A stretch of DNA of 64,000 nucleotides from Alphaproteobacteria bacterium (GTDB lineage Bacteria; Pseudomonadota; Alphaproteobacteria; SHWA01): positions 6,377 to 70,376 of the forward strand of contig SHWA01000001.1 of NCBI GenBank assembly GCA_009693995.1, in the 5' to 3' direction. Every line of letters begins with the position of its first letter. Position 1 is the first letter of the stretch. Of this stretch, positions 7,865-25,110 are shown piece after piece. The position numbers were made by a program, and so were the translations under genes. The notes under the pieces were generated by a model. The model saw only the letters and a program-made list of their open reading frames with translations, searched no databases and had not been told where the DNA came from.

Positions 7865-7882
7865 CGCCCCGCTCCCACCGGT

Positions 7883-10006: not shown

Positions 10007-10013
10007 CGCTTGC

Positions 10014-11630
10014 CTAGGCCCGCCGTCCCTGCTGCAGCGTCTCGGCCACCATCGCGCGCAGGCGGAACTTCTGGATCTTGCCCGAGGGTGTCATGGGTAG
10101 GGCTTGCACCACCTCGACCCGCTCGGGCCATTTCTGCTTCGCCACTCCGGCGTCGTGCATCCACCGTTGCACCTCGGCCAGGCCGAGGGCGGCGCCGGGC
10201 TTGGTGATCACGTAGGCGCAGACCCGCTCGCCGAGCCTCGGGTCCGGCATGCCGACGACCGCCACGTTGGCGACCGCGGGGTGCGCGAACAGCACGTCCT
10301 CGACCTCAACGGGGGAGATGTTCACCCCACCACGAATGATCAGGTCCTTGATCCGACCGGTGATCTTGACGTAGCCGTCGCCGTCCATGCGCGCCTGATC
10401 GCCGGTGCGGAACCAGCCATCGGCCTGGTAACTCTTGGCGGTCAGCTCCGGCTGGCGGTAATAGCCCATGGTCACCATGGGACCCTTGGCCATCAGCTCG
10501 CCGTCGGCCCCGGGTGCCACGGTGTCGCCACCCGCATCCACCACCTTCAGCTCCATGCCGCCACAGGGCAGCCCGTCGGTGGTGTAGAGCTTCTCCTCCG
10601 GGCAGTCGAACGGGCAGGTGGTGACGCCGCCGCATTCGGTCATGCCCCAGAGCGGCGAGGTGAACGTCGCCGGCATGGCGGCGCGGGCGTCGCGCACCAG
10701 CTTCTCCGGGATCGACGCGCCGCCGCAGAGAAACAGGCGGACCGATTGCAGCGCGCCCCGCCGGGCAAGGTCCGGATGGTAGACTAGGTCGAGCAGGAAC
10801 GGGGTCGCCGCCGCCATGAAGGTCGGGCGCTCGCGCTCGATCATGGCCAGCGCCGCCGCCGGCTCCCAACGCTCCAGCAGCACGATCGACCCGCCGATGG
10901 TGAGGGTCATGCGCACCGCGTGGGTGAAACCGACGGAGTGGCCGAGAGGGGAGCAGCCGAAAATGCGGTCGCCCTCGTTCAGGCCGTAGCGGGCGATGAA
11001 TCCGGCGTTGGTCGCCGCCAGGATCCGGCTCGACCACATGGCGCCCTTGAGATCGCCGGTGGTGCCCGAGGTGAAGCCGAGGGCGGTCAGATCGTCGCTG
11101 CCGGGGGCGAGCTTGGCGAGCGCGCCGGGATCGTCGCCGGCTGGCCAGGAGCGCGCCAGCAGGTCCTCGTAGGAAAGGCACCCCGCCCGCGCCACCGCCT
11201 CGCCGCCGCCGACCAGAATGACATGCGCGAGACCCGGCGCCTCGGCGCGCAACCACTCCGCCATGGCGCCATAGTCGAAATCGCGGAACCGGGCCGGCAC
11301 CACCAGGGCCTTCGCCCTGGTCTGGGCGAGGAGCGCGCGCAGCTCGCGCTCGCGGTAGACGAGTGGGATGGTCGCCGTCACCGCGCCGATCCGCGTCAGC
11401 GCCAGATGCAAAACGATGAACGGCGCCCAGTTGGGCAGTTGCAGGATCACCACGTCCCCGCGCCCGAGGTCGTGGGCGAGGAGGGCGGCGGCCAGGCGCT
11501 CCACCTGCTCCGCCACCTGGGCATAGGTGAGGCGGCCGTAGTGCGCATCGACCACCAGCTCGCGCCGGGGATCGCGCGCCGCGATTCCCGCCAGCCGGTC
11601 GGTGATGAGCCCGGTCGCCGCCGCGGTCAT
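10014..11630 (-). CDS. AMP-dependent synthetase/ligase (acyl-CoA synthetase, class I adenylate-forming)
   Basis: 538 aa; AMP-binding motif LGFTSGTTGDLKGAMW, ...GWFRTGD..., ...PSGKIQK C-terminal lysine motif. Confidence 0.9.
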   Translation of the reverse strand: MTAAATGLITDRLAGIAARDPRRELVVDAHYGRLTYAQVAEQVERLAAALLAHDLGRGDVVILQLPNWAPFIVLHLALTRIGAVTATIPLVYRERELRALLAQTRAKALVVPARFRDFDYGAMAEWLRAEAPGLAHVILVGGGEAVARAGCLSYEDLLARSWPAGDDPGALAKLAPGSDDLTALGFTSGTTGDLKGAMWSSRILAATNAGFIARYGLNEGDRIFGCSPLGHSVGFTHAVRMTLTIGGSIVLLERWEPAAALAMIERERPTFMAAATPFLLDLVYHPDLARRGALQSVRLFLCGGASIPEKLVRDARAAMPATFTSPLWGMTECGGVTTCPFDCPEEKLYTTDGLPCGGMELKVVDAGGDTVAPGADGELMAKGPMVTMGYYRQPELTAKSYQADGWFRTGDQARMDGDGYVKITGRIKDLIIRGGVNISPVEVEDVLFAHPAVANVAVVGMPDPRLGERVCAYVITKPGAALGLAEVQRWMHDAGVAKQKWPERVEVVQALPMTPSGKIQKFRLRAMVAETLQQGRRA

Positions 11631-12565
11631 GACACCCGGCCGGGCGCGATCTGGTCGAGCGCAGGCATCACCTCGCGCGCCAGGCGCTCCAGATGCCGGC
11701 GCCGGTCGTTCGGCGGCATGATCGGCGCGAGGATCAGGTAGTTGGCCCCGGCCTCGACGTACTTGGCGAGATACTCCGTGATCCGCGCCGGCGGGCCAAA
11801 GGCGCAGTATTTCTCCACCAACTGCGCGAAGTCCTGGTCGTAGCGGTAGCTCAGCTCCTTGACGCCCGAGGCGCGCGCCTTGGCCACGTCGTCGTCAAGC
11901 GCGACATAGATGAAGCAGGCGAACACGTAGTCCGCAGGCAGCTCGCGGCCGCCCTCACGGGCGAACTGCTTCACCTGGGTGAAGGAGTCGCGGCATCGGT
12001 CGGCCGTGTACATGTACGGGTGCCAGCCGTCGCCGAGCTTGGCGGCGCGGCGCATGGGCCCCTCCTGCCGCCCCGACACCCAGATCGGGATGGTGCCGTT
12101 CACGGGACGCGGCAGCATGTCCACGTCCGCGAGATCGAAGATCTTGCCCTTGTAGTCGAAGCGCTTGCCCGACCAGTACTGGCGCATGATCTCGATCGCT
12201 TCGGTCGAGCGCTGGCCGCGCTCGTTGATCGGCACGCCGCAGCCGGCGAACTCGCGCGGGTAGTCGCCGCCGACGCCGACCGTCAGCAGCACGCGGCCGC
12301 CCGACAGCACGTCGAGGCACGAAAACTGCTTGGCCACCATGGTCGGGTGGCGCAAGGGAAGCAGCAGGGTCGCCGGCCCGATCTTGATGCGCGACGTCAG
12401 CGCCGCCGCCCAGGCGAGCGTGGTCACCGCCTCCAGGATCGGGCGGTGGTAGACGATATGCTCGCCGGTCCAGAAGCTGTGGTAGCCGAACTCCTCGACC
12501 GAGCGGATGTCGGCGGCCTGCCAATGGTCGCCCCCACAGGTGATCCCGATCTTCGCCGACATCAC
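11627..12565 (-). CDS. LLM-class flavin-dependent oxidoreductase (luciferase-like monooxygenase)
   Basis: 312 aa; luciferase-like TIM-barrel sequence (SFWTGEH ... GDGW); overlaps AMP-ligase start by 4 nt. Confidence 0.8.
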   Translation of the reverse strand: MMSAKIGITCGGDHWQAADIRSVEEFGYHSFWTGEHIVYHRPILEAVTTLAWAAALTSRIKIGPATLLLPLRHPTMVAKQFSCLDVLSGGRVLLTVGVGGDYPREFAGCGVPINERGQRSTEAIEIMRQYWSGKRFDYKGKIFDLADVDMLPRPVNGTIPIWVSGRQEGPMRRAAKLGDGWHPYMYTADRCRDSFTQVKQFAREGGRELPADYVFACFIYVALDDDVAKARASGVKELSYRYDQDFAQLVEKYCAFGPPARITEYLAKYVEAGANYLILAPIMPPNDRRRHLERLAREVMPALDQIAPGRVS

Positions 12566-12574
12566 CGCCTCTCC

Positions 12575-14257
12575 TTACTCGGCCGCCCGGGCGTGGCCGT
12601 AGTCCGCGCGCGCGGCCGCGCGGCCGATCTTCTCCTCGCGCAGGTCGCGCTGGATCGCTTCCTGCGCGCGCTCCGCCGGTGCGCCGTAGCCTCCGCCGCC
12701 CTGCGTCCACATGCTGAGCACGTCGCCCCGGTGCAGGCGCAGGTTCACGTTCTTGGAGGCGAGCTCCCTGGGCGCCGGCCCGTCCGGGTTCAGCACCAGG
12801 CGCCCGGTCTTCCCCGAGCCGCCGCCGAACAGGCCGAAGGGCGCCACCTTGAATTTGTCGAACTGGGTCTCGACCGCGCCGACCTCGTCCAGGAACTCGA
12901 TGTCGCGGCGCACGCCGAGCCCGCCGCGGAAGCGCCCGGCTCCGCCGGTGTCGGGGATGAACTCGTAACGCTTGAAGCGCAGCGGATAGTTCAGCTCGAC
13001 CATCTCGATCGGCGTGTTGGCGAGGTTGTGGATGCCTTGCGAGTAGCAGTCGAGGCCGTCCTTGGTGGCGCGCGCGCCGCCGCCGCCGACCTCGATGTCG
13101 AACAGAATCCAGCCGCGGCGGTCGGCGCCCTCGCCTTCGCCCGAGAGGATGTAGACGTTGGACATGCCGTAATAGGCCGCCGTGATCCGCTCGGGCACCA
13201 CCTTGGAGAGTGCCATCATCAGGGCGTTGACGATGGTGTGGGTGATCGCGTTGCGCCCGACCACCGGGGCCGGCGGATTGGCGTTCACCACGGTGCCTGC
13301 GGGCGCGGTGATGGTGATCGGGCGATAGACGCCGTAATTGGCCGGGATGGTCGGGTCGAGGATCGAGAGGATGGCGAAATAGGTCGCCGATTCGCACGAC
13401 GAAATGGTGGCGTTGATGGGCGCGCGGCGCTGTCGGTCGGTGCCGGTGAAATCGACGTGGATGCCACCGTCCTTGATCGTGATCCTGGTCGCGATCCGGA
13501 TCGGCTCATCGACCACGCCGTCGTCATCCACGTAGTAGACGCCCTCGAACGTGCCTTCGGGCAGCTCACGGATGCGCTCGCGCAGCCGTGATTCGGAGAT
13601 GTCGACCGCGTCCAGCATGCAGTCGCGAAAGCCCTCGGCGCCGTAGCGCTCCACCAGATCGAGGACGCCGGCGCGGCCGATCTCGAGCGCCGCCGCCTGG
13701 GCGCGCAGGTCGCCGATCGTCTGTTCCGGCTGGCGGATGTTGGCCTCGATCAGGTCGAACAGGCGCTGGTTCAGCTTGCCGGCCTCGAACAGCTTGATCG
13801 GCGGGATGCGCAGTCCCTCCTGGTAGATCTCGACCGCATCTCCGGCATAGCTGCCGGGACGCATGCCGCCGACATCGAGATGGTGGCCGAGGGTGCCGCA
13901 GATCGCCACCATCTCGCCGCCCGCGAACACCGGCAGGAAGGTCTGAATGTCGGGCAGGTGCTGACCGCCGCGGTAGGGATCGTTGGTGATGATGATGTCA
14001 CCTTCATGCCACTCGATCTTGGGGAACGACTGGTCGAGGGTGGTGCGCAGCGACCGCGACATGGAATTGAGGTGGATCGGGATGCGGCACGACTGGGCGA
14101 TGATCCGCCCCTCGGGGTCGAACACGGCCGTCGAGTAGTCCAGCATTTCGCGGATGACGGTCGAATAGGACGTGCGCAGGATGGTCGCCGCCATCTGCTC
14201 GGCGACGCCGACGAGGGCGTTGTTGACCACTTCGAGGGTGATGGGATCGACGCGCAT
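12575..14257 (-). CDS. Hydantoinase B / 5-oxoprolinase family protein (HyuB-like)
   Basis: 560 aa; hydantoinase_B family features (DPYRGGQHLPD, GGGGYG); 4 nt after hyuA stop. Confidence 0.9.
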   Translation of the reverse strand: MRVDPITLEVVNNALVGVAEQMAATILRTSYSTVIREMLDYSTAVFDPEGRIIAQSCRIPIHLNSMSRSLRTTLDQSFPKIEWHEGDIIITNDPYRGGQHLPDIQTFLPVFAGGEMVAICGTLGHHLDVGGMRPGSYAGDAVEIYQEGLRIPPIKLFEAGKLNQRLFDLIEANIRQPEQTIGDLRAQAAALEIGRAGVLDLVERYGAEGFRDCMLDAVDISESRLRERIRELPEGTFEGVYYVDDDGVVDEPIRIATRITIKDGGIHVDFTGTDRQRRAPINATISSCESATYFAILSILDPTIPANYGVYRPITITAPAGTVVNANPPAPVVGRNAITHTIVNALMMALSKVVPERITAAYYGMSNVYILSGEGEGADRRGWILFDIEVGGGGARATKDGLDCYSQGIHNLANTPIEMVELNYPLRFKRYEFIPDTGGAGRFRGGLGVRRDIEFLDEVGAVETQFDKFKVAPFGLFGGGSGKTGRLVLNPDGPAPRELASKNVNLRLHRGDVLSMWTQGGGGYGAPAERAQEAIQRDLREEKIGRAAARADYGHARAAE

Positions 14258-14261
14258 GGTC

Positions 14262-16319
14262 TCAGCTCCCGATCGCGATCAGCAGGTTGCCGAAGTCGTC
14301 CACCCGCGCCTTCTGGCCCGGGTGGATGACGGTGGTGGTGTCGATCTGTTCGACGATGGCCGGCCCGGCGATGGTGGCGCCAGGCCCCAGGCGCTCGCGG
14401 TCGTAGACGGCGGTCGCGACATAGCCCGCGGCCTCGTCGAAATAGACCTGGCGCCGTTCCTTGGGAACGACGGCCCCGCCATTCGCCTTCGCGCGTGGCT
14501 GGATCGGCGGCGCCGACATCAGCCCGAGCGCGGCAATCCGCGCGCTCACGAACTCGACCGCCTTGTCGGGGTGGTTGTGGGCGAAGGACTGCAGGTGCCG
14601 ATCATGGAAGCGCAGGACCAGCGCCGCGACCGCCGCCGCGTCCAGGGTGCCCGCCGGCAGGGCCACGTTCACTTCGTAGGCCTGGCCGGCATAGCGCAGA
14701 TCGGCGGTGCGCTGCAGCAGCCGCTTCGCGCGCGGCACGCCATCTTCGGCGAGGGCCGCGTCGGCTTCGGCCTCGAGCGCGGCATAGAGCGGCGCGACCG
14801 CCGCCGGGGTGATTGCCGCCCCGCGCAGGACTCGGGTCTGCACCGCGTCGTGGCGGATGTCGGCCATCACCAGGCCAACCGCCGAGAACACGCCCGGCTG
14901 TTCGGGCACCAGGACGCTGGGAATGCGCGCCGCCTGGGCCAGCGCCGCGGCGTGCATCGGGCCGGCGCCGCCGAAAGCAACCAGGGTGATGCTGCGCGGG
15001 TCGTACCCTTTTTCGGCCGAGGAGACGCGCACCGCGCGCTCCATGTTGGCGTTGGCGATGCGGATGATCCCGGCCGCGGCCTGCTCGACGCTGAGCTTGA
15101 GCGGCGCACCCACCCGCTCCGCGATTGCCCGCCGGGCCGCCTCGCGGTCGAGGCGGATGTCGCCACTGGCGAACCGATCGGGGTGCAGCCGGCCGAGCAC
15201 CAGGTTGGCGTCGGTCACGGTCGGCTCGGTGCCGCCGCGGCCATAGGCGACGGGGCCGGGATCGGCGCCGGCGCTCATGGGCCCGACGTGCAGGCCGCCG
15301 GCGCTGTCGAGCCAGGCGATCGATCCGGCCCCGGCGCCGATGGTGTTGATCTCGATCATCGGCAGCTTCACGGGGCGCCCGGCGACCGCGCCCTCGGTGG
15401 TCATGCGGAGTTCCCCCCGGTGGATGAGGGAGATGTCGGTCGAAGTGCCGCCCATGTCGACACCGAGCAGGTTGTCGTAGGCGGTCGCCTTGCCGATCCG
15501 CTGCACGGCGAGCGCGCCACCGGCCGGACCAGAGGTGAGCATGCGCACCGGGTAGTTCTGCGCCGCCCCGACGGTCAGCGACCCCCCGCTGGACTGCATG
15601 AGCAGCACCTTGGCGTTCGGCAGCACCGCACCGACCCGGCCCGCGATCTCGCTCAAATAGCGGGCGACGAGGGGCATCGCGGCGGCGTTCAGCGCCACGG
15701 TGCTCATGCGCTCGTACTCGCGGATCTCGCGGCAGACCTCGCAACTGGCGGAGACATGGATGCCGGGCAGCTCCGCCCGCGCCCAATCCCGCACCTTGGC
15801 CTCGTTGGCCGGATTGACGAAGGAGTTGAGGAAGCAGATGGCGAGCGCTTCGGCGCCGCTCTCCTTCACCTGGGCGAGCAGGCGCTGCACCTCCTGGCGC
15901 TCGGGCTCGCGGATGACCTCACCAGTCGCGGTGGTGCGCTCGGCCACGCCGAAGCGGCGGTCGCGCGGTACCACGGGCGGGGCCTTGTCCTGTTGCAGGT
16001 CGTACATGTCGGGGCGGAAATGGCGCCCGATCTCGAGGATGTCGCGGAACCCCTCGGTGGTGAGCAGGGCGGTCTTCGGCAGTTTGTTCTCGAGCACCGC
16101 GTTGGTGACGATAGTGGTGCCGTGCACCAGAAGCGTCACGTCGCCGGGGGCGACCTTGGCCAGTTCCAGCCCGCGCCGCACCGCATCCACCAGCGCCCCC
16201 GCCGGGTCGCCGCGCCGGCTCGGCACCTTGGCGATCGCCAGCCGCCCCGTCGCCTCGTCCAGCACCGTGATGTCGGTGAAGGTGCCGCCGATGTCGATGC
16301 CGATGCGAACCGCGCCCAT
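14262..16319 (-). CDS. Hydantoinase A / oxoprolinase family protein (HyuA-like, ATP-dependent)
   Basis: 685 aa from ATG 16317-16319 (MGAVRIGIDIGGTFTD = ASKHA ATPase phosphate-1 motif); the 842-aa track ORF is an upstream run-through. Confidence 0.9.
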   Translation of the reverse strand: MGAVRIGIDIGGTFTDITVLDEATGRLAIAKVPSRRGDPAGALVDAVRRGLELAKVAPGDVTLLVHGTTIVTNAVLENKLPKTALLTTEGFRDILEIGRHFRPDMYDLQQDKAPPVVPRDRRFGVAERTTATGEVIREPERQEVQRLLAQVKESGAEALAICFLNSFVNPANEAKVRDWARAELPGIHVSASCEVCREIREYERMSTVALNAAAMPLVARYLSEIAGRVGAVLPNAKVLLMQSSGGSLTVGAAQNYPVRMLTSGPAGGALAVQRIGKATAYDNLLGVDMGGTSTDISLIHRGELRMTTEGAVAGRPVKLPMIEINTIGAGAGSIAWLDSAGGLHVGPMSAGADPGPVAYGRGGTEPTVTDANLVLGRLHPDRFASGDIRLDREAARRAIAERVGAPLKLSVEQAAAGIIRIANANMERAVRVSSAEKGYDPRSITLVAFGGAGPMHAAALAQAARIPSVLVPEQPGVFSAVGLVMADIRHDAVQTRVLRGAAITPAAVAPLYAALEAEADAALAEDGVPRAKRLLQRTADLRYAGQAYEVNVALPAGTLDAAAVAALVLRFHDRHLQSFAHNHPDKAVEFVSARIAALGLMSAPPIQPRAKANGGAVVPKERRQVYFDEAAGYVATAVYDRERLGPGATIAGPAIVEQIDTTTVIHPGQKARVDDFGNLLIAIGS

Positions 16320-16330
16320 GACCCCGTCCT

Positions 16331-17134
16331 TCACTTCCCGGCCGCGCCGCCCAAGGCCGACGGCCGCGTCCGTTTGGCTCGCGCCGGCCGCGCCGCCAAT
16401 GGGCTCGCGCGCCGGTTGAAGCCGATGGCGAAGTGGAACTTGCAGCGGTCGACGCGGTAGCTGATGGTGCCGGCCTCGATCGGCGTGCCGCCGGCGATGC
16501 GCCAGGTGTAGGTGTTGGCCAGCACCAGCGTGCGCGGGCCGACGTCGAGTGCCGCCGCCACGTCGCGCGGTGCCGGCGTGATCTCGCTGTCCCAGTCCGA
16601 CTCGACAATCGGCGACCCAACCAGGTCCTCGATCACCTCGGAGGCATCGCGGTGCTCGACCCGTTTCGGGTCGAGCCGCGCCGCGATCCAGGCTGGATAG
16701 TAACGCCGGTCGTGGCAGACGATGCGCCCGTCGACCAGGCGCACCAGGCTCAGGCAGCCGACCTGGCTGTCCGCTGGCAGACCCAGGCAAAGGCGCATGG
16801 CGGTCGGCGCCGGCATCACCGGCTCATAGCTGAGGATGCGCGTCACGAAGGCGACGCCCTGGCTGGCCAGGTCCTGCTCGAAACTGGTGAGGGGCGCAAA
16901 GCGGCGGGTGATCTTGGGTGGATTGACGGTGGTGCCGCGACCGCGCAGCCGGGATACCAGGCCACCCCGCTCCAGCAGATCGAGCGCGCCGCGGACCGTG
17001 ATGCGGCTGACCCGGAATCGCTCGGCCAGTTGCTCTTCGGTCGGCAGCAGCGAGTTGGGGCCGAGGCGGCCGATCTCGCCCTCGAGCCAAGCCGCCACGT
17101 CGAGATAGAGCGGAGAACGGGTGCCGCCAGCCAT
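16331..17134 (-). CDS. GntR-family transcriptional regulator (HutC/UTRA subfamily)
   Basis: 268 aa from ATG 17132-17134; N-terminal wHTH (LPTEEQLAERFRVSRITVRGALDLLERGGLV) plus UTRA effector domain; first gene of the minus-strand operon. Confidence 0.85.
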   Translation of the reverse strand: MAGGTRSPLYLDVAAWLEGEIGRLGPNSLLPTEEQLAERFRVSRITVRGALDLLERGGLVSRLRGRGTTVNPPKITRRFAPLTSFEQDLASQGVAFVTRILSYEPVMPAPTAMRLCLGLPADSQVGCLSLVRLVDGRIVCHDRRYYPAWIAARLDPKRVEHRDASEVIEDLVGSPIVESDWDSEITPAPRDVAAALDVGPRTLVLANTYTWRIAGGTPIEAGTISYRVDRCKFHFAIGFNRRASPLAARPARAKRTRPSALGGAAGK

Positions 17135-17203
17135 CGATCTCCCCCAGACCCATACCAGCGGGCCGAGACTGGCGCGGCATGGCGACGTTGTCAATACTGA
17201 TAA

Positions 17204-17234: not shown

Positions 17235-17759
17235 TCAGGGCCACATGCGACGCAGGATCCCGTCGCGCTGGATCAGGTGGTGCTGTAACGCCGCGCCAAT
17301 GTGCGCGGCGATCAGGGTGGCCAGCGACAAGCCGGTCCAGCCGTGCCAATAGAGGATCGCCTCGCCGAGGCCCTGGTTCTTGGCCACCAGTGGCGGCAGC
17401 GCGAACAGCCAGAAGACCGTGATCGGCGCGCCATAGGCCGAAGTGCCCCACCAGCCGACCAGCGGATTCAGCAGCAGCAGGAGATAGAGCGCACCGTGAA
17501 CGGTCATGGCCGCGCGTTGCTGCCAGGCGGGCATGGTCGCCGGCAGGGGCGGCGCCGGGTGGCTCAGGCGATAGAGCAATCGGGCGACAACCAGGGGAAA
17601 CAGGACCACGCCGATGGACCGGTGCAGGTCGTAGCCGAAGTCCTGGATGCGCCCCTGCCGCAGCTCGGAGAGTGCCAAACCGAGCGGCACCATGGTGAGT
17701 ACCAGCGCGGCCGTGGTCCAGTGAAAGGCTCGCGCGACCGGCGTGTAACGCTCGCCCAT
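17235..17759 (-). CDS. Cytochrome b561 family protein
   Basis: 174 aa, 4 predicted TM helices with conserved His (FHWTTA..., ...HGALY..., ...HIGAALQHH). Confidence 0.75.
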   Translation of the reverse strand: MGERYTPVARAFHWTTAALVLTMVPLGLALSELRQGRIQDFGYDLHRSIGVVLFPLVVARLLYRLSHPAPPLPATMPAWQQRAAMTVHGALYLLLLLNPLVGWWGTSAYGAPITVFWLFALPPLVAKNQGLGEAILYWHGWTGLSLATLIAAHIGAALQHHLIQRDGILRRMWP

Positions 17760-17765
17760 AGGGGC

Positions 17766-18911
17766 TCAGCGCCGGCGGGCCGCGTGCCGCAACGGCTCGG
17801 GGTCGATCTCGTCCAGCAGATGGCCGACCCGGGTCGCCTTGGCTTCCAGATAGCGGCGGTTCTCGTGATTGACCGGCGCGATCACCGGCAGCCGATCGAC
17901 CACCGTGACACCGGCCGCCGCCACGGCGTCGATCTTGGACGGGTTGTTGGTCAGCAGCATGATGCGCGTGACGCCGAGCAACTCCAGCATGCGCGCGGCC
18001 ACGTCGTAGTGTCGTTCGTCGTGCTCGAAGCCGAGCGTGGTGTTGGCATCGAAGGTGTCCAGCCCGCGGTCCTGCAGGACATAGGCGCGCATCTTGTTGG
18101 CCAGGCCGATGCCGCGGCCCTCCTGGTCGAGATAGAGTACGACCCCGCCGCCACGCTCGTGCATCATCTCGGTGGCGATGCGCAACTGGTCGCCGCAGTC
18201 GCAGCGCAGCGACCCGAACACGTCCCCGGTCAGGCAGGCGGAATGCAGCCGCACAGGAACCACGCCGGCGAGGTCGGGCTGGCCGATCAAGACCGCCGTC
18301 GACAGGCGTCCCAACACGTCGCGGAACACGACCAACTGGCTGTCATGGGCGGCGCGCAAGGGAACCCGGGCGCGGCTGACGATCTCGAGCGACCGTGCCC
18401 GCATCGCCTCGAACTCGGCGATGCGCTCGGCCGGCAGGGTGATCAAGCCGTCCAAGGCGACCCCCGGCGCGACCCGCGCCACCACCGGTGCCGGCAGCAG
18501 GAGCGCGAGCTTGGCGAGGGCAATTGCCGCCGCCGCGGCTTCATCGCCCGGAACCGCCCGCTGGGTCGGCCGCACCGGCTCGCCTGCCGCCAGCTCCGCG
18601 ATCCAGGTGCTGGTCACCTCCGGTGCCAGGTCGATCATGGTCACGCGATCCCCGAGGCCGAGGGCCGCGGCCCGGTGACCGGAAATGGCGAGGGCGAGGG
18701 CGCCACCCCGCGCCACTCGCCGCAAGGCCGCGAGCGCCGCCGGCTCCGCCGCCTCGGCGGACAACGCCAGCAGCCGGACGCCGCCCGCCTGCAAGACCAC
18801 GGGCCGGCCGGCCTGAAGCTCGGCAATGCCACGCTCGATCGCCACGGCGGCCGGCTCGACCCCCGGTTTGGCAAAGAGACTGGATAGATCCTTCAAGACC
18901 TTGGTCCTCAA
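17766..18911 (-). CDS. ribA: GTP cyclohydrolase II with degenerate N-terminal RibB-like domain
   Basis: 381 aa; C-terminal GCHII signature RLHSACLTGDVFGSLRCDCG ... zinc/GTP motifs; N-terminal ~170 aa resembles DHBP synthase but lacks acidic catalytic motif. Confidence 0.8.
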   Translation of the reverse strand: MRTKVLKDLSSLFAKPGVEPAAVAIERGIAELQAGRPVVLQAGGVRLLALSAEAAEPAALAALRRVARGGALALAISGHRAAALGLGDRVTMIDLAPEVTSTWIAELAAGEPVRPTQRAVPGDEAAAAAIALAKLALLLPAPVVARVAPGVALDGLITLPAERIAEFEAMRARSLEIVSRARVPLRAAHDSQLVVFRDVLGRLSTAVLIGQPDLAGVVPVRLHSACLTGDVFGSLRCDCGDQLRIATEMMHERGGGVVLYLDQEGRGIGLANKMRAYVLQDRGLDTFDANTTLGFEHDERHYDVAARMLELLGVTRIMLLTNNPSKIDAVAAAGVTVVDRLPVIAPVNHENRRYLEAKATRVGHLLDEIDPEPLRHAARRR

Positions 18912-19195
18912 ATCATCCGCGCATCGCCATCACTGTCCCCGGTCGGAAGTCCGTTACGCATGGGTTCGCGAACTGCCAATCTTAGGCTGAAGGCATGGCG
19001 CGCGCCCTCGCGCCGCCGTGCTCCACGCCCGAGCCGTGCTCTGCGCTGTCTTTTTGCCCCAAGTCACCGCCAACGAGACCTGCCGGATCGGTTCCTGACG
19101 CGGCCCGACATTACCCCTGCAACCGAGCAACATCAATGGCTTCGACGCCAACCGTACCTTGATGGACAGACATTTTTTCGTGACGCGGCGCCGGG

Positions 19196-20005
19196 TCATG
19201 GCGCGTGCCCAGGCACCGCCCAGAGATCGACATGGCCGACCGTCAGGCAGAGTTCGTCGCGGGCGAGGGCCGCCATGCGCGCAGCCTGCCAATCCACCAG
19301 ATCCGGCGCTGAGACTGCCCCGCTCTCGGCCACGGCCTGGTACCACCCGGCGACCAGGCGCCGTTGCAGTGCCGCCGCTTCCGCCCCCAAGACCCAGTCG
19401 GCGAGGCCAGTCGCCACCTGGTAACCGCGGCTGGCGAAAATCGCCGCGGCCGCGGCGACCGCGAGCGGCCCCAGCGCATCGCCGAGGCCCTTGTCACGGT
19501 GCTGATGGCGATTGAAGGCCGCGAAGACGGCGCCGTCCAGCGCGTGCGCCGGTTGCGCGGCCAGGCGGCCATCGACGCTGAGGGCGGCATAGACCGGCCG
19601 CCGCCGCGCGGCCGCGGCGGTTGCCAGGCGCTCCAGCCAGGACCGCGACACCAGGTCGAGGAAGGCCGAGGTGGTCAGCAGATCGGCCGGCCGCGCCAGT
19701 ACGGCCTCGAGGTCCCGGTCGAGATCCGCCCGATCGAACACGGCTGGCACACCGGTGGCGGCGCAGGCGGCCTTGGCGCGCCCGAGCAGCCCGGCGTCAC
19801 GATCGACCAGATGCCATGCCTGGGACTGCCCGAGGTGGGGTGCGAGCGCGCGCAATGTGGAGCCCGTGCCACAGGCGAGATCGGTCACGCGCACGGCCTC
19901 GCGGCGCCCGAGATAAACCAGCACCGCATCCCGGATCGGAGCGTTGCGGGCCAGGTGGTCGGCCGGTTCGCGGAGCGCCAGCCAGTCGGCGGAAAAGTCG
20001 CTCAT
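19196..20005 (-). CDS. Class I SAM-dependent methyltransferase
   Basis: 269 aa; motif I VTDLACGTGST; overlaps the upstream GT gene end by 4 nt. Confidence 0.8.
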   Translation of the reverse strand: MSDFSADWLALREPADHLARNAPIRDAVLVYLGRREAVRVTDLACGTGSTLRALAPHLGQSQAWHLVDRDAGLLGRAKAACAATGVPAVFDRADLDRDLEAVLARPADLLTTSAFLDLVSRSWLERLATAAAARRRPVYAALSVDGRLAAQPAHALDGAVFAAFNRHQHRDKGLGDALGPLAVAAAAAIFASRGYQVATGLADWVLGAEAAALQRRLVAGWYQAVAESGAVSAPDLVDWQAARMAALARDELCLTVGHVDLWAVPGHAP

Positions 20006-21039
20006 GCCGCGGCCTCGAGGGCGCCGGCGACGCGATCGACGGTGGCTTCCCAGCGCGGCAGTGCAACCGCCGCCAGCCGCGCGCCGGCGGCGAGGGCGGC
20101 GCGCCGGCGGCGGCTGCCGATCAGGTCTTGCAGCACTTGCGCCAGGGCCCCCGCGTCGCCAGGCGGGACCAGGACTCCGGCGCCTGCGGGCACCACCTCG
20201 GGAACCGCCCCGGCCGTGGTGCCCACCACCGGCAGCCCGTGCGCGAGGGCCTCGGCGTAGACCATGCCATAGCCCTCATAGCGCGAGGCGAGCACGAACA
20301 AGTCCGCGCGATCATAGAGCGCGACCAGGCGGCCGGCGTCCACAGGACCCAGCAGCGCCACACGCTCGTCGAGGCCGGTGGCCGTAATCAGGGAACGCAG
20401 CCGGTCGGCCTCGGCCCGATCGCGCGCCTCGCCAGCGATCGCGAGACGCCAGGGCAACCCGCGCAGCCCCGCGAGCGCGGCGATCAGCACGTCGTGGCCC
20501 TTGCGCGGCACCAGGCTGCCGACGGAGAGCAGCGCGACCGCCTCGCCACCGCTGCCGCGAGCAGGGGGCGCCGGCGAGGTTCCAGGCGGGGCGACCACCA
20601 GCCGCTCGCGCGGCACGCCATAGGCGGCGGCCAGCATCGCGGCGGTCGTCCGGCTGGTGGTGACGACACGGTGCGCAGCGGCGAGGGCCGCCCGTTCGCT
20701 GGTCGCCAGCGCCGCCGCGCGACCCGGTGCCGCGCCGGTCTCCAATGCGAGGGGGTGATGGATCAGGGCGACCAGCGGCCGCTTCCTGCCGAGGCGGGCG
20801 CCGATCTCCGGCAGCGCGCCCAGGGCGAGGCCATCGATCAGGAGCGTCCGATCGACCGGCACGCTCGCAAGACACGCGTAGCTCTCGGCCAGGATGGCGT
20901 CGTCCGGGTCGGGAAAGCGGTCGCTCAAGGGCAGCATCCGGACCGTCCAGCCGCGCGCGGCGAGCCCGGCGGCCACGTGCCGATCGTAGGCGTGGCCCCC
21001 GGTCGGCGCATCGAGGGCACCGGGTACGGCGAACACCAC
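20002..21039 (-). CDS. Glycosyltransferase family 4 (GT1/GT-B fold)
   Basis: GT4 C-terminal motif (EGYGMVYAEALAHGLPVV); start uncertain: GTG at 21037-21039 avoids overlap with queD-like gene; alternatives TTG 21054 or ATG 21084. Confidence 0.7.
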   Translation of the reverse strand: MVFAVPGALDAPTGGHAYDRHVAAGLAARGWTVRMLPLSDRFPDPDDAILAESYACLASVPVDRTLLIDGLALGALPEIGARLGRKRPLVALIHHPLALETGAAPGRAAALATSERAALAAAHRVVTTSRTTAAMLAAAYGVPRERLVVAPPGTSPAPPARGSGGEAVALLSVGSLVPRKGHDVLIAALAGLRGLPWRLAIAGEARDRAEADRLRSLITATGLDERVALLGPVDAGRLVALYDRADLFVLASRYEGYGMVYAEALAHGLPVVGTTAGAVPEVVPAGAGVLVPPGDAGALAQVLQDLIGSRRRRAALAAGARLAAVALPRWEATVDRVAGALEAAA

Positions 21040-21040
21040 C

Positions 21041-21448
21041 TCACGCGGGGCCAAGGGGCGCCTCGTACCAGGCCCGCGCCACATGGGATTCGGCGAGCGC
21101 GACCCTGAGCGCCGCCACCTCGGCCGCGGGGCGCCCGACACGGCCCGCGCGGACCGCGCCGGCCAACTGGTCGAACACATGCTTCGCCAGGGCCTCGGTG
21201 GTGGTATTGCGGCCGCGAAACTCCACCACGTCGTCGAGATTGCGGTAGTTCAGGGGGGCGAGCACTTGGCGTAAAACCTCGCTGGCGCGGCCGATATCGA
21301 CGATCAGGCCGTCGCCGTCGAGTTCGCGGGTGAAGAAGGTCGCATCGACCACGAAGGTCGCCCCGTGCAGCCGCTGGGCGGGGCCGAATACCGCCCCCTG
21401 GAAACTGTGCGCGATCATGATGTGGTCACGGACCGAGAGCGCAAACAT
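21041..21448 (-). CDS. 6-pyruvoyl-tetrahydropterin synthase / QueD-family protein (atypical, no Cys in the HGH-motif region)
   Basis: 135 aa; PTPS-like fold features (IAHSF..., RLHGATFVVD...) but lacks the Cx3HGH cysteine. Confidence 0.6.
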   Translation of the reverse strand: MFALSVRDHIMIAHSFQGAVFGPAQRLHGATFVVDATFFTRELDGDGLIVDIGRASEVLRQVLAPLNYRNLDDVVEFRGRNTTTEALAKHVFDQLAGAVRAGRVGRPAAEVAALRVALAESHVARAWYEAPLGPA

Positions 21449-21573: not shown

Positions 21574-23400
21574 ATGGCGCCCTCGGCGAACCGGAGGCGG
21601 CGCGGCGTGGCGGATCACGGGCAGAGCGCGGGACCATCGGCAGCGGCCATTGGTCGCCGGCGTGCGGCGTTTGCCATCCTGGTCGTGGCCACGGTCCTGG
21701 CGATGCTGGCACTGATGGTCCGCACCCTTTCCACCGACGGTATCGACATGGTGGACGGGCTGATGCTGTTCGCCCTCCTGATCAACCTGCCTTGGACGGT
21801 GATCGGCTTCTTGAATGCCTGCTTCGGCCTGGCGCTCACCCTGTTCGCCCGCGACCCCGAGACGACCGCCGCGCCCCTCGCCCGCCACATCCGGGGCGAC
21901 GAGCCGATCACCGGCGCGACCGCAATTCTGGTCTGCATCCGCAATGAGGAGCCGGCGCGGCTGCGGCGCAATCTCGATGCCATGCTGGGCGGCCTGATCG
22001 CGAGCGGAGCGGCGCCCCACCTGCACTGCTTCGTACTCAGCGACACCAACCGGCCCGAGATCGCGGGGGCGGAGGAAGCGCTCGCTGCCGACCTTGCATT
22101 ACGCTTTGGTTCGCGCCTGCCCGTGACCTACCGCCGCCGCCCCGACAACCCGGGGTTCAAGGCCGGCAACATCCGCGACTTCTGCGACCGCTGGGGCAGC
22201 GGCTTCGCCTTCGCCCTGGTGCTGGATGCCGACAGCTTCATGAGCACCGAGGCGATGCTGCGCCTGATCCGCACCATGCAGGCGACCCCGACGCTCGGCA
22301 TCTTGCAGAGCCTGGTGGTCGGCATGCCCACCGCGAGCGCCTTCGCGCGCCTGTTCCAATTCGGCATGCGCCTCGGCATGCGCTCCTACACCCTGGGCAG
22401 CGCGTTCTGGCAGGCCGATTGCGGGCCCTATTGGGGCCATAACGCGATCATCCGCCTGGCTCCCTTCATCGCCCACTGCCACCTGCCGCGCCTGCGGGGC
22501 GGACGGTGGGTCTTGAGCCATGACCAGGTCGAAGCGGTGCTCATGCGCCGCGCCGGCTACGAGGTGCGCATCCTCCCGGTCGAGGACGCCTCCTGGGAGG
22601 AAAACCCGCCGACCCTGCCGGAGTTCATCCGCCGCGATCTGCGCTGGTGCCAGGGCAACATGCAATACTGGCAGTTGCTGGCGACACCCGGCCTGCTGCC
22701 GGTCAGCCGCATTCAACTGGTGCTGGCGATCCTGATGTTCCTCGGCTCGCCGGCCTGGGTCGGCATGGTGACGCTGTTCACCATATTCGGCGTGCTGTCG
22801 CCGACGCCGATCTTCGATCCCCTCTATGGCACCGTGATCCTGTTGGCCACCCTGGCCATGGTGTTCGCGCCCAAGATCGCGAGCGTGATCGTGGTCCTGC
22901 TGCTGCCCGAGCAGCGCCGCGCCTTCGGCGGTGCGCCCCGGTTCGCGGCGAGCGTGCTGGTCGAGGTACTGTTCATGGCGACTCTCGCGCCGATCGTGGC
23001 GGTGGCGCACACGGTCTTCCTGTGCGGCCTCCCCTTCGGCCGCACCATGGGCTGGACCGCGCAGTTGCGGGACGACCAGGCGGTGCCCTTCGCCGTCGCC
23101 TGGAAGCGGCTCTGGCCGCAGACCCTGCTCGGCATCGCCGGCATCCTCTGGGTGGGCGTGCTGGCGCCGTGGGCCTTTCCCTACCTGCTGCCGTTCGTCG
23201 GGCCGCTCGCGATCGCGATTCCCTATGCGATGGTGAGCGCCTCGCCGGACCTCGGGCTGGCGCTTGCCCGCCTCGGCGTCGGGCGCCTGCCGGAGGAGAC
23301 CGCCCCGCCCGCCGCCCTCCTCCCGCTCGCGCTGCCGGCGGTGGTGGCGAACCCGGGCCCGCCGGCGCTCCGCGCCGAGCCCGCGGCGGTCGAGCGCTGA
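21574..23400 (+). CDS. opgH: Glucans biosynthesis glucosyltransferase H (OpgH/MdoH, GT2)
   Basis: ~608 aa from first ATG (track ORF begins at TTG 21511); GT2 motifs (LDADS..., QGNMQYW) and multiple TM segments. Confidence 0.85.
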   Translation: MAPSANRRRRGVADHGQSAGPSAAAIGRRRAAFAILVVATVLAMLALMVRTLSTDGIDMVDGLMLFALLINLPWTVIGFLNACFGLALTLFARDPETTAAPLARHIRGDEPITGATAILVCIRNEEPARLRRNLDAMLGGLIASGAAPHLHCFVLSDTNRPEIAGAEEALAADLALRFGSRLPVTYRRRPDNPGFKAGNIRDFCDRWGSGFAFALVLDADSFMSTEAMLRLIRTMQATPTLGILQSLVVGMPTASAFARLFQFGMRLGMRSYTLGSAFWQADCGPYWGHNAIIRLAPFIAHCHLPRLRGGRWVLSHDQVEAVLMRRAGYEVRILPVEDASWEENPPTLPEFIRRDLRWCQGNMQYWQLLATPGLLPVSRIQLVLAILMFLGSPAWVGMVTLFTIFGVLSPTPIFDPLYGTVILLATLAMVFAPKIASVIVVLLLPEQRRAFGGAPRFAASVLVEVLFMATLAPIVAVAHTVFLCGLPFGRTMGWTAQLRDDQAVPFAVAWKRLWPQTLLGIAGILWVGVLAPWAFPYLLPFVGPLAIAIPYAMVSASPDLGLALARLGVGRLPEETAPPAALLPLALPAVVANPGPPALRAEPAAVER

Positions 23401-23404
23401 GTCC

Positions 23405-24181
23405 ATGGCAACCGCGACCCCGCCGCTGCCACTCGGCCGGCGCTGGACCCAGGTCAGGGGCGTGCTGCGTTCGCTCCTCCTCTACTACCGGGACGCCGCG
23501 CGGCGGCGCGCCATGGACCGCCTGCACGCCGGGTTCATGCGGCCGGGCGATCTGGTGTTCGACATCGGCGCCCATGTCGGCGACCGGATCGCCTCGTTCC
23601 GGCGCCTCGGATGCCGAGTGGTCGCGGTCGAGCCGCAGCCGGCACTGGTGGCCACCCTCCGCCTGCTCTATGGCAGAAGCGCCGGCGTGACCATCGAGCC
23701 GGTCGCGGTCGGCGACCATGAGGGCATCCTGACTCTGCATCTGAACCTGGCGAATCCGACGTTGGCCACGGGATCCACCGCCTTCATCGCCGCCGCCGGC
23801 GGCGCCGCGGGCTGGGAAGGCCAGAGCTGGTCGCACCGGGTCGACGTGCCCCTCACCACCCTCGACCGGCTGATCGCGCGCCATGGCCGGCCACGCTTCA
23901 TCAAGATCGACGTGGAGGGGCTGGAAGCCGCCGTCCTCGGCGGCCTCGGCGCAGCGCCGCCCGCTCTCTCCTTCGAGTTCACCACCATCCAGCGCGGCGT
24001 CGCCGTGGCCGCCCTGGACCGCTGCCTGGTCCTGGGCTTGCGCCGCTTCAATGCCGCGCTCGGGGAGTCCCAGTCCTTGGTCTTCGCCGAGTGGCAGGAC
24101 GGCCGCGCCATCGCACGCTGGCTGACCGAGCTGCCCCACACGGCGAATTCCGGCGACATCTACGCCCAGGAAGGTTCCTGA
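23405..24181 (+). CDS. FkbM-family methyltransferase
   Basis: 258 aa from ATG 23405 (4 nt after opgH stop); FkbM signature FDIGAHVGD ... FIKIDVEG. Confidence 0.8.
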   Translation: MATATPPLPLGRRWTQVRGVLRSLLLYYRDAARRRAMDRLHAGFMRPGDLVFDIGAHVGDRIASFRRLGCRVVAVEPQPALVATLRLLYGRSAGVTIEPVAVGDHEGILTLHLNLANPTLATGSTAFIAAAGGAAGWEGQSWSHRVDVPLTTLDRLIARHGRPRFIKIDVEGLEAAVLGGLGAAPPALSFEFTTIQRGVAVAALDRCLVLGLRRFNAALGESQSLVFAEWQDGRAIARWLTELPHTANSGDIYAQEGS

Positions 24182-25110
24182 TGCGGCACTTGCTCCGCCT
24201 CCTCCTCTGCGGCGCCCTCGCCCTCCTCCCGCTCGCGGCCCGGGCGGTCGAGGTGTCGGTGGTGAACGCCTCCAAGCCGACCCGCTGCGCCGAGGAGGAC
24301 AATGTCTACGTCAAGCTCCAGAGCGATGGGGTGCGCCGCTTCACCGTGACCGCGCGGCATCCGCCCTATCTCGGCGCCGTGACCGTGGACTCCGCCGCCG
24401 CCGACTTCACCCACTGCGCGATTTCCGGGGCCAAGGACTATCCCTTCACCCCGCGCAGCGTGACCCTGTTCGAGGACGGCGAGTGGCGCCTGATGGGCCA
24501 CACCTATGGCGGGTTCTGGACCCCCTATGTGGTGCCGGTCAGGGTCGGCGCGCGGGTGGAATCGGGTCTGCACCTGTTGCAGCTGATCCGCCGGCACAAG
24601 GGCGAATGGATCGAACTCCTGGTGCTCTACCCGGCCGACGGTTACTGGCGCACCAAGCCGCTGCCGCCCGACCATCTGCCCGATACCGCCTATGGCTCCT
24701 CGTTCCTGTTCGGCCCGATCGTGGAGCGCGAGCGGCCGCTGGTGGTTATCGACGCGGTCGAATACGTGCCTGCCACCCGCACCTTCCGTCTCGCCTTCGC
24801 CGAGGGTGGTGGCACCGGCACGCTCCGCCTCGCCGGCTTCGACACCAGCGAAGTCACCCTGGCCGTCGCGCTCGAGCGCACGATCGCGCCGGACCGCCCC
24901 TTCGCCGCGCTGCGCTCGATGTTCGTGACCCCCGGCAACGCCGACGTGATCGAGGCCGCCTTCATTGCTGGCGACGGCCGCCGCGGAATACCCGCCGGGA
25001 TTCTCGACTTCGCCCGTGAACGCGCCGCCGAAGTGAGCTTCGGCCGCCGCTGGCCCTCGCGCCACAACCTGAGCGCTCCCGACCTGATCTTCGGTGCTTT
25101 CGGCCGCTGA
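24181..25110 (+). CDS. Secreted hypothetical protein (signal peptide MRHLLRLLLCGALALLPLAARA)
   Basis: 309 aa; start ATG overlaps FkbM stop (TGATG); no recognisable catalytic motif. Confidence 0.6.
   Translation: MRHLLRLLLCGALALLPLAARAVEVSVVNASKPTRCAEEDNVYVKLQSDGVRRFTVTARHPPYLGAVTVDSAAADFTHCAISGAKDYPFTPRSVTLFEDGEWRLMGHTYGGFWTPYVVPVRVGARVESGLHLLQLIRRHKGEWIELLVLYPADGYWRTKPLPPDHLPDTAYGSSFLFGPIVERERPLVVIDAVEYVPATRTFRLAFAEGGGTGTLRLAGFDTSEVTLAVALERTIAPDRPFAALRSMFVTPGNADVIEAAFIAGDGRRGIPAGILDFARERAAEVSFGRRWPSRHNLSAPDLIFGAFGR

Follow-up and report, generated by a model that had tools for sequence, protein, structure and literature searches.

A 64-kb stretch of alphaproteobacterial DNA (contig SHWA01000001.1, G+C about 70%; the whole stretch of 64,000 nucleotides is referred to here as the window) carries a reduced, intact copy of a widespread bacterial gene cluster centered on a homolog of 6-pyruvoyltetrahydropterin synthase (PTPS) of the PTPS-IV subfamily. 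The cluster is of a recognized orphan type and is not a new system. Its core in the window is a trio of co-directional genes, encoding PTPS-IV, a family 4 glycosyltransferase (GT4) and a dedicated S-adenosylmethionine (SAM)-dependent methyltransferase, which lies next to a GTP cyclohydrolase II (GCH-II) paralog and divergent from an OpgH-like membrane glucosyltransferase. The interpretation favored here, with about even confidence, is that an aminopyrimidine or pteridine derived from the GCH-II product is decorated with a sugar and a methyl group by the enzymes of the trio and ends in the cell envelope. It draws on the family identity of the PTPS-fold protein and its loss of catalytic residues, the coupling and conservation of the trio, its linkage to GCH-II, to a RibD_C reductase and to a medium-chain dehydrogenase/reductase (MDR), a set of gene fusions, and the alternation of OpgH with a CDP-alcohol phosphatidyltransferase across lineages.

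The PTPS-IV protein and its active site

The 135-aa PTPS-fold protein has a sole strong relative in the PDB, SCO6650 of Streptomyces coelicolor (3D7J, titled 6-pyruvoyltetrahydropterin synthase homolog), which it matches over the full length with 59% identity (phmmer E=1.7e-42). The same structure is the top Foldseek match of its AlphaFold2 (AF2) model (pLDDT 90.4), with a template modeling (TM) score of 0.92 and a root-mean-square deviation of 1.3 Å, as against TM scores of about 0.72-0.75 for QueD and PTPS structures, and the NCBIfam QueD model TIGR03367 gives the protein 40.9 bits against a cut-off of 89.25. Residues 21-25 read FGPAQ, a motif that is invariant in the family alignments and has been described as the signature of the PTPS-IV subfamily (PMC5445326). 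The neighborhood published for this subfamily includes PF00925 (GCH-II) and PF01872 (RibD_C) (PMC5445326, PMC5041015), of which the window has GCH-II, while RibD_C was not found in its 64 kb. The protein belongs to the PTPS-IV (SCO6650-type) subfamily of COG0720/PF01242 and is neither a QueD nor a PTPS, and membership of the locus in the PTPS-IV cluster family is near certain.

In the HMMER alignment to E. coli QueD, Ala24 occupies the position of the catalytic Cys27, His28 aligns with the zinc ligand His31, and Ala30 replaces the zinc ligand His33 (the third zinc His). The sequence is accordingly AQRLHGA where QueD and PTPS have their Cx3HGH or Cx5HGH motif, both the Cys and the last His being Ala. 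The Asp-His of the catalytic triad is represented by Asn67-Tyr68 (LNY instead of LDH), and His14 and the ring-anchoring Glu120 are retained. T-fold enzymes hold the 2-amino-4-oxopyrimidine ring via a conserved Glu. The SCO6650 structure of Spoonamore et al. in 2008 reportedly contained no zinc and no catalytic triad, with no PTPS activity, and SCO6655, the GCH-II neighboring SCO6650, is said to make a formylated ring-opened product. The replacements A24, A30, N67 and Y68 are invariant across alpha-proteobacteria and Streptomyces, which argues against decay; over 34 sequences, 49 of the 135 PTPS-IV columns are invariant.

An earlier note on this DNA, made from the sequence alone, had described a PTPS-fold protein of the QueD family without the Cx3HGH cysteine. 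The fold and the missing cysteine were borne out by the match to 3D7J and by Ala24, and inspection of the zinc ligands revealed the additional exchange of one His for Ala30. The QueD label did not survive. A QueD (6-carboxytetrahydropterin synthase) acting in queuosine or 7-deazapurine synthesis is what public annotation implies, as the Prokaryotic Genome Annotation Pipeline (PGAP) names the PTPS-IV homologs ‘6-carboxytetrahydropterin synthase’ and gives them the GO term ‘queuosine biosynthetic process’. This naming looks like a systematic misannotation, since the homologs lack the catalytic Cys and fall below the cut-off of the QueD model. One zinc His is also replaced, and no queC, queE, queF or folE was found among the 43 window ORFs (open reading frames) scanned with Pfam or in the annotated related loci. 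The QueD assignment is effectively refuted.

Architecture and conservation of the cluster

The genes of the cluster and its immediate neighbors in the window are as follows.

21448..21041, minus strand: PTPS-IV (SCO6650-type) T-fold protein, 135 aa (Pfam PF01242, E=7.7e-22)
20002..21054 (or from GTG 21039), minus strand: GT4 (GT-B, retaining) glycosyltransferase, 345-350 aa (Pfam Glycos_transf_1, 1.7e-32; Glyco_trans_1_4; Glyco_transf_4)
20005..19196, minus strand: class-I SAM methyltransferase, 269 aa, cluster-specific (Pfam Methyltransf_25, 1.8e-7)
19195..18912, minus strand: non-coding gap of 284 nt between the methyltransferase and GCH-II genes (285 nt stop to start)
18911..17766, minus strand: GCH-II paralog, 381 aa (PF00925, 1.5e-52)
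17759..17235, minus strand: cytochrome b561 family membrane protein (PF01292, 1.1e-28)
21511 or (likelier) GTG 21607..23400, plus strand: OpgH/MdoH-like GT2 membrane glucosyltransferase (NCBIfam NF003958, NF003962)
23405..24181, plus strand: FkbM-family methyltransferase (PF05050, 9.3e-18; TIGR01444, 9e-24)
24181..25110, plus strand: predicted secreted protein, 309 aa, without family assignment, N-terminal sequence MRHLLRLLLCGALALLPLAARA

The three ORFs of the trio lie head to tail, with stops and starts that overlap or abut. The overlap of 4 nt between the GT4 and methyltransferase genes, which the earlier note had pointed out, is an ATGA (GT4 stop TGA at 20004-20002, methyltransferase ATG at 20007-20005). 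Its statement that the upstream gene ends 1-2 nt before the GT4 start is correct for one of the two start options: the GTG at 21039 follows the PTPS-IV stop (TGA, 21043-21041) after 1 nt, whereas the alternative TTG at 21054, preceded by a GAGG at a distance of 6 nt and chosen by a public gene caller, overlaps the PTPS-IV gene by 14 nt. The cytochrome b561 gene starts 6 nt past the end of the GCH-II gene. On the other side, the divergent opgH-like gene is separated from the PTPS-IV gene by an intergenic gap of 63-158 nt, the fkbM ATG at 23405 lies 4 nt beyond the opgH stop, and the start of the secreted-protein gene overlaps the fkbM stop (TGATG) at 24181. The 284-nt gap contains no Rfam match, sigma-70-like promoter or terminator; an Rfam scan of 16-26 kb in search of a riboswitch (E<=1) returned two chance-level matches only, and a promoter and terminator scan of 17-22 kb returned nothing above the shuffled background.

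Conservation was surveyed with one genome per species. Relatives were found in at least 588 species, and the best 80 loci, spanning alpha-, beta- and gamma-proteobacteria and one actinomycete, were analyzed further; counts use only loci with enough flanking sequence, so that the denominators differ. In 76 of 77 genomes the PTPS-IV gene has a co-directional GT4 gene directly behind it, at a projected distance of 3 nt (median), an arrangement far beyond chance. The methyltransferase gene comes directly after GT4 in 62 of 74 and elsewhere in the locus in 6 more, and the trio seen in the window is a conserved unit elsewhere. Clustering of all locus ORFs against each other added two partners, a gene resembling ‘zinc-binding alcohol dehydrogenases’ of the MDR superfamily, directly upstream of PTPS-IV in 72 of 73 loci, and a stand-alone RibD_C gene resembling pyrimidine reductases (TIGR01508-like, 7.5e-31), present in 57 of 67 loci and usually located on the opposite strand between the methyltransferase and GCH-II genes. 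The adjacency to ribA given in the earlier note, represented in the window by the GCH-II gene 285 nt downstream, also recurs: 46 of 60 genomes have a GCH-II gene no more than 10 kb away from PTPS-IV. Its position changes: most alpha- and beta-proteobacteria have it co-directional and downstream, Rhizobiaceae and Actinosynnema have it in divergent orientation, and in one alpha-proteobacterial locus it is part of a fusion. The persistence of the linkage despite these changes argues for function and not for inherited gene order. The GCH-II/RibD_C module is frequent but dispensable, as expected of dedicated, precursor-boosting copies of housekeeping riboflavin enzymes. The creatininase family is represented at 21 loci. 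Cytochrome b561 accompanies the cluster at 31 of 81 loci and is part of the operon in Thiodictyon (L085, 10528-11085), which hints that the product or its use is redox-linked.

Annotated records illustrate the variation of the locus around a constant core. In Methylosinus trichosporium OB3b, mdoH is followed divergently by genes for an alcohol dehydrogenase (ADH), PTPS, GT4 and methyltransferase, with RibD on the opposite strand. In Streptomyces fungicidicus, a CDP-alcohol phosphatidyltransferase gene stands divergent from ADH, PTPS, GT4, methyltransferase and a flippase-like gene, followed by creatininase and ribA. Microbacterium has CDP-alcohol transferase, ADH, PTPS, GT4, methyltransferase and LPG_synthase_TM genes in one operon, with RibD, and Thiodictyon has ADH, PTPS, GT4, methyltransferase, cytochrome b, RibD and CDP-alcohol transferase genes, likewise in one operon. 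A plasmid of Rhodobacteraceae bacterium SC52 (L086, 6984-9891) carries MDR, PTPS-IV, methyltransferase and RibD genes without GT4, adjoining ribokinase and mtnA, and in this variant the absence of GT4 suggests that glycosylation is not obligatory in every lineage. With the PTPS-IV protein as the only query, a search of a library of representatives gave 1,614 sequence clusters (50% identity) at E<=1e-3, of which 739 remain at E<=1e-10; both numbers include more distant relatives of the PTPS family.

Parts of the cluster are also joined in single proteins. A GT4-methyltransferase fusion of 644 aa is encoded in Marinobacter goseongensis (L065, 10386-12320), and a single ORF of 748 aa in an alpha-proteobacterial metagenome-assembled genome (L026, 11355-13601) combines an N-terminal GT4 with a C-terminal GCH-II. 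A metagenomic protein (P0382) fuses PTPS to GT4, possibly through a frameshift artefact. Three tandem PTPS-IV domains occur in proteins of 375-855 aa (P0246, P0248, P0247, P0242, P0250), and in the 855-aa member, P0246, they are followed by a region matching the profile of the cluster methyltransferase, including its N-terminal motif (hhalign E=1.8e-5, probability 78%). Among the sources of the P0246 cluster members are two haptophytes, Emiliania huxleyi and Gephyrocapsa oceanica, and judging from these sequences the orphan pathway seems to exist, in fused form, in eukaryotic phytoplankton. These four fusion types, counted as independent, tie the parts of the cluster together.

Against this background, the copy from which the earlier note started is atypical in having neither the MDR dehydrogenase-like gene nor the RibD_C gene. 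It is the sole locus of the 73 eligible ones without an MDR gene upstream of PTPS-IV, and a tblastn search of the 64-kb window with three query proteins from each of the MDR, RibD_C and creatininase families found no match. The position that RibD_C has in most relatives is taken by the 284-nt non-coding gap, and tblastn found no RibD_C remnant in the window. A decaying or non-functional remnant, from which MDR and RibD_C have been lost, could be envisaged on these grounds. The trio itself is intact, however, as every invariant family column is kept (49 in PTPS-IV, 53 in the methyltransferase) together with the EX7E motif of GT4, and the three intact ORFs keep their translational coupling and a normal G+C content at third codon positions (GC3); the missing genes could also lie outside the window. 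Decay of the locus is regarded as very improbable.

The GT4 protein has an intact EX7E motif (YEGYGMVYAE) and matches no NCBIfam equivalog at its cut-off. Its best PDB sequence matches are sucrose-phosphate synthase (SPS, 6KIH), PimB' (3OKA) and MshA, enzymes whose acceptors are sugar- or polyol-phosphates or phosphatidylinositol; they constitute weak evidence on the acceptor, because they match mainly in the donor-binding half. A role in a defense system, raised by a match to the GT4-conflict family PF20706, was rejected, that match being much weaker than those to generic GT4 models and having no other contextual support. The methyltransferase has a conserved N-terminal DWLALREPxDxxAR motif and a DLACGTGS SAM-binding loop, and has no sequence relative in the PDB. 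Foldseek with its AF2 model (pLDDT 94.3) retrieved only generic class-I small-molecule methyltransferases (RebM/AtmM, PEAMT, OxaG) with TM scores of about 0.6.

The GCH-II paralog has an N-terminal extension of about 170 aa and keeps the Tyr at the canonical product-determining position (KMRAYVLQ). It passes the NF001591 cut-off (226 bits, cut-off 148) but not that of the full-length model NF006456 (366 bits, cut-off 464), and judged by the window sequence it may be either the housekeeping copy or a dedicated paralog. A change of the Tyr to Met or His would presumably indicate a FAPy (formamidopyrimidine)-type product, as for SCO6655. The idea that presence of the creatininase (ArfB-like) gene tracks such a change was tried and, for proteobacteria, dropped, as all proteobacterial copies keep the Tyr regardless and only Actinosynnema has His.

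Beyond the cluster, the window is devoted to catabolism. A co-directional block on the minus strand (5429-16790), which adjoins the cluster and looks unrelated to it, encodes hydantoinase/oxoprolinase A and B, a luciferase-like monooxygenase, an AMP-binding ligase, an ADP-forming CoA ligase and the large subunit of a molybdenum hydroxylase, and a GntR/UTRA regulator gene (16331-17194) lies between this block and the cytochrome b561 gene. Taken as a whole, the window outside the cluster encodes hydantoinase A/B, luciferase-like monooxygenases, acyl-CoA ligases, amidohydrolases, Rieske oxygenases and transporters, as well as an RTX calcium-binding nonapeptide repeat protein of 338 aa (46211-47227, minus strand; PF00353, 7.7e-26). 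The Pfam scan of the window ORFs found no rib, que, fol or opgG genes in this remainder.

Membrane partners and the proposed pathway

The membrane enzymes encoded beside the core fall into two alternatives. Of 58 loci with at least 4 kb of upstream and at least 5 kb of downstream sequence, 42 contain OpgH only, 12 contain a CDP-alcohol phosphatidyltransferase (PF01066) only, 4 contain neither and 0 contain both, and the CDP-alcohol transferase is usually accompanied by the LPG_synthase_TM flippase-like gene. We infer that the soluble core hands its product to one or the other of these enzymes. The divergent opgH reported in the earlier note proved to be a sound assignment, the window protein reaching 500.6 bits with NF003958 (cut-off 419) and 455.3 bits with NF003962 (cut-off 328), and 49 of 65 genomes have opgH in divergent orientation to the cluster. 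No OpgG/OpgD partner accompanies it, a Pfam scan of the window ORFs having revealed no MdoG domain; opgH is followed instead by the genes for the FkbM methyltransferase and the 309-aa secreted protein. Of 62 genomes, 32 have an FkbM methyltransferase gene beside the cluster, among them Rhizobiaceae in which the locus has no OpgH. The secreted protein has no Pfam or NCBIfam match and only marginal matches to TolR in the PDB, and 7 other loci have a homolog in the corresponding place. In six genomes of beta-proteobacteria (Polynucleobacter, Alcaligenaceae, Methylopumilus and others; L018, L019, L024, L025, L033, L037), the cluster methyltransferase has moved to the divergent operon, where it comes last, after opgH and an NdvA/ChvA-type glucan ABC exporter gene (NF010178, 837 bits, cut-off 733).

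The earlier note had mentioned decoration of periplasmic glucan as an alternative role. In its direct form, GT4 and the methyltransferase would branch or O-methylate the OpgH glucan or its precursor, PTPS-IV would have a non-pterin role and the ribA paralog would be a mere neighbor. The frequent divergence of opgH, the transfer of the methyltransferase gene into an opgH-chvA-like operon, and, in the window, the coupling of opgH with genes for a secreted protein and an FkbM methyltransferase are all in its favor. However, the MDR-PTPS-IV-GT4-methyltransferase core occurs without OpgH in Actinobacteria, Rhizobiaceae, Marinobacter, Thiodictyon and haptophytes, all three proteins of the trio are predicted to be soluble and cytoplasmic, OpgG was not found in the scanned window ORFs, and the linkage to GCH-II and RibD_C and the gene fusions are left unexplained. 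Direct decoration is quite improbable. What stands of the suggestion is a well-supported but lineage-specific link to glucan, since other lineages carry the CDP-alcohol phosphatidyltransferase instead.

For the favored pathway from GCH-II to the envelope, we infer the substrate, the order of steps, the chemistry of PTPS-IV, the target of methylation and the envelope destination. The adjacent GCH-II would open GTP to the 2,5-diamino-6-ribosylamino-pyrimidinone phosphate of the early riboflavin route, and in most genomes the RibD_C reductase and the MDR-type dehydrogenase would then reduce or oxidize the side chain. PTPS-IV, as a zinc-less T-fold protein, would bind the 2-amino-4-oxopyrimidine ring of the GCH-II product or of a pteridine derived from it, and would rearrange or otherwise process the polyol-phosphate side chain; in a variant of the scheme it would close the pteridine ring, completing together with GCH-II what GCH-I does alone. 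GT4 would transfer a sugar from its nucleotide-activated form, and methylation of the product would fall to the dedicated SAM methyltransferase. The finished molecule would pass to a membrane enzyme and thereby into the envelope, either exported or attached to glucan or phospholipid, the membrane enzyme being the divergent OpgH-like glucan synthase operon here and in most alpha- and beta-proteobacteria, and the CDP-alcohol phosphatidyltransferase with its flippase-like protein in other lineages.

The earlier note had likened the trio to pterin-glycoside or modified-purine tailoring, and this did not hold up in that form: the conserved precursor enzyme is GCH-II and not GCH-I, which points to an aminopyrimidine of the early riboflavin type, or a pteridine made from it, and not to biopterin or neopterin glycosides or 7-deazapurines. 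In a classical pterin-glycoside pathway, PTPS-IV would handle the side chain of a GCH-I-derived pterin of the neopterin or biopterin type that is formed elsewhere, and GT4 and the methyltransferase would turn it into a methylated glycoside. The PTPS fold with its conserved ring-anchoring Glu is compatible with this, and a group-1 glycosyltransferase together with a methyltransferase fits the known pterin glycosides (biopterin glucoside, cyanopterin), a point counted in its favor. But the enzyme found near the cluster across genomes, and once fused to GT4, is GCH-II (PF00925), the 64-kb window contains no folE, sepiapterin reductase or other pterin genes, and the Cys, the Asp-His and the third zinc His of PTPS chemistry are missing. 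Its probability is accordingly low, and much the same as that of direct glucan decoration.

Alternatively, PTPS-IV could be the missing enzyme of an archaeal-type early riboflavin/F0 branch (with GCH-II/III, an ArfB-like creatininase and RibD_C), supplying precursors of riboflavin or F420. An involvement of PTPS-IV in F420 synthesis has been stated with reference to unpublished work (PMC5041015), and this is the only published hint of a function. The neighboring GCH-II and RibD_C genes, and the creatininase-family gene in 21 loci and in Actinobacteria, agree with such a role. GT4 and the methyltransferase, which are the tightest partners, as well as OpgH and the CDP-alcohol transferase, would by contrast have no role in riboflavin or F0 synthesis, no F0/F420 genes were found in the window, and presence of the proteobacterial creatininase is accompanied by no change at the GCH-II Tyr. 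This assignment is highly unlikely.

Several points weigh against the favored pathway of a GCH-II-derived, glycosylated and methylated envelope molecule. Its substrate and chemistry are deduced from gene context, as no product or activity is known for any member of the cluster. Of 60 genomes, 14 have no GCH-II gene closer than 10 kb to PTPS-IV, and 10 of 67 loci are without RibD_C. In the window, where MDR and RibD_C are both missing, the pathway may be incomplete, complemented from elsewhere in the genome, or directed to a different product. The fold search with the methyltransferase model gives no clue to an acceptor, the association with OpgH could in part be synteny inherited among related proteobacteria, and the F420 role stated in PMC5041015 would need no GT4, methyltransferase or membrane partners.

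A more specific extension of the proposal is that the core product, a glycosylated and methylated polyol of an aminopyrimidine or pteridine, is installed covalently in the envelope. It would form the head group of a new phospholipid in the lineages with the CDP-alcohol transferase (Actinobacteria, Rhizobiaceae and some gamma-proteobacteria), and an aglycone, primer or substituent of an OpgH-made, ChvA-exported glucan in the lineages with OpgH (most alpha- and beta-proteobacteria). This extension is put forward tentatively, as rather unlikely in itself. If true, it would mean that hundreds of bacterial species, and haptophyte algae by means of a fused enzyme, contain a previously unknown class of GTP-derived and possibly redox-active envelope molecule, a redox role with which the recurrent cytochrome b561 would agree.

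A search of the literature on SCO6650-6655, on the context of PTPS-IV and on names of cluster products found no functional study in what is searchable. In this sense the earlier statement that the trio is not a described pathway is upheld, while the PTPS-IV type had already been recognized (3D7J, PMC5445326, PMC5041015): the family, its structure and part of its neighborhood are known. Three observations appear to be absent from the accessible literature, namely that OpgH and the CDP-alcohol transferase exclude each other, that the methyltransferase has moved into the opgH-chvA operon, and that parts of the cluster are fused, in haptophytes among others. The PTPS-IV/SCO6650 cluster is among the largest conserved bacterial clusters with a solved structure and no assigned product. 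The comparative picture assembled here, comprising the MDR-PTPS-IV-GT4-methyltransferase core, the GCH-II/RibD_C precursor module, the fusions and the exclusive membrane partners, makes this orphan pathway experimentally approachable, and its product may be sought among guanine-labeled lipid head groups or substituents of osmoregulated periplasmic glucans (OPGs).

Comparison with known systems

The SCO6650-SCO6655 region of S. coelicolor resembles the window locus in the fold of the PTPS-IV protein, its FGPAQ motif and lost residues, the downstream GT4 and methyltransferase genes, and the linkage to GCH-II. The actinobacterial clusters differ in additionally containing genes for MDR, creatininase, CDP-alcohol phosphatidyltransferase and LPG_synthase_TM flippase-like proteins and in being without OpgH, whereas the window is without MDR and RibD_C and has OpgH and FkbM. 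QueD (PTPS-I) and the mammalian-type PTPS-II have in common with PTPS-IV the T-fold, the Pfam family and the ring-anchoring Glu, but PTPS-IV is linked to GTP cyclohydrolase II and not to folE or queCEF.

With the archaeal-type early riboflavin/F420 route, the related loci have in common GCH-II, the RibD_C reductase and often a creatininase, and the window only GCH-II. The cluster is without the deaminase, lumazine synthase and F0 synthase of that route, and its GT4, methyltransferase and membrane enzymes have no counterpart there. The likeness to the OpgGH and NdvA/ChvA systems consists in a window gene that passes the MdoH cut-offs and in the ChvA-type exporter gene that follows opgH in beta-proteobacterial relatives. 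Here, however, OpgG/OpgD was not found in the window, OpgH is coupled to FkbM and a secreted protein, and across lineages it is swapped for the CDP-alcohol transferase.

The closest precedent for a glycosylated compound derived from GCH-II comes from plants, where vicine and convicine, the pyrimidine glucosides of faba bean, are made from GTP via GCH-II (VC1) and subsequent glycosylation (bioRxiv 10.1101/2020.02.26.966523). The plant pathway has no T-fold protein, dedicated methyltransferase or membrane partner, and the likeness is one of logic only.

Cyanobacteria and Chlorobium produce pteridine glycosides (biopterin glucoside, cyanopterin, tepidopterin), in which a GTP-derived heterocycle is modified by a GT-B glycosyltransferase and the sugars are sometimes methylated. 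These systems use GCH-I, a competent PTPS and sepiapterin reductase, whereas the cluster described here combines GCH-II with a catalytically rewired PTPS homolog.

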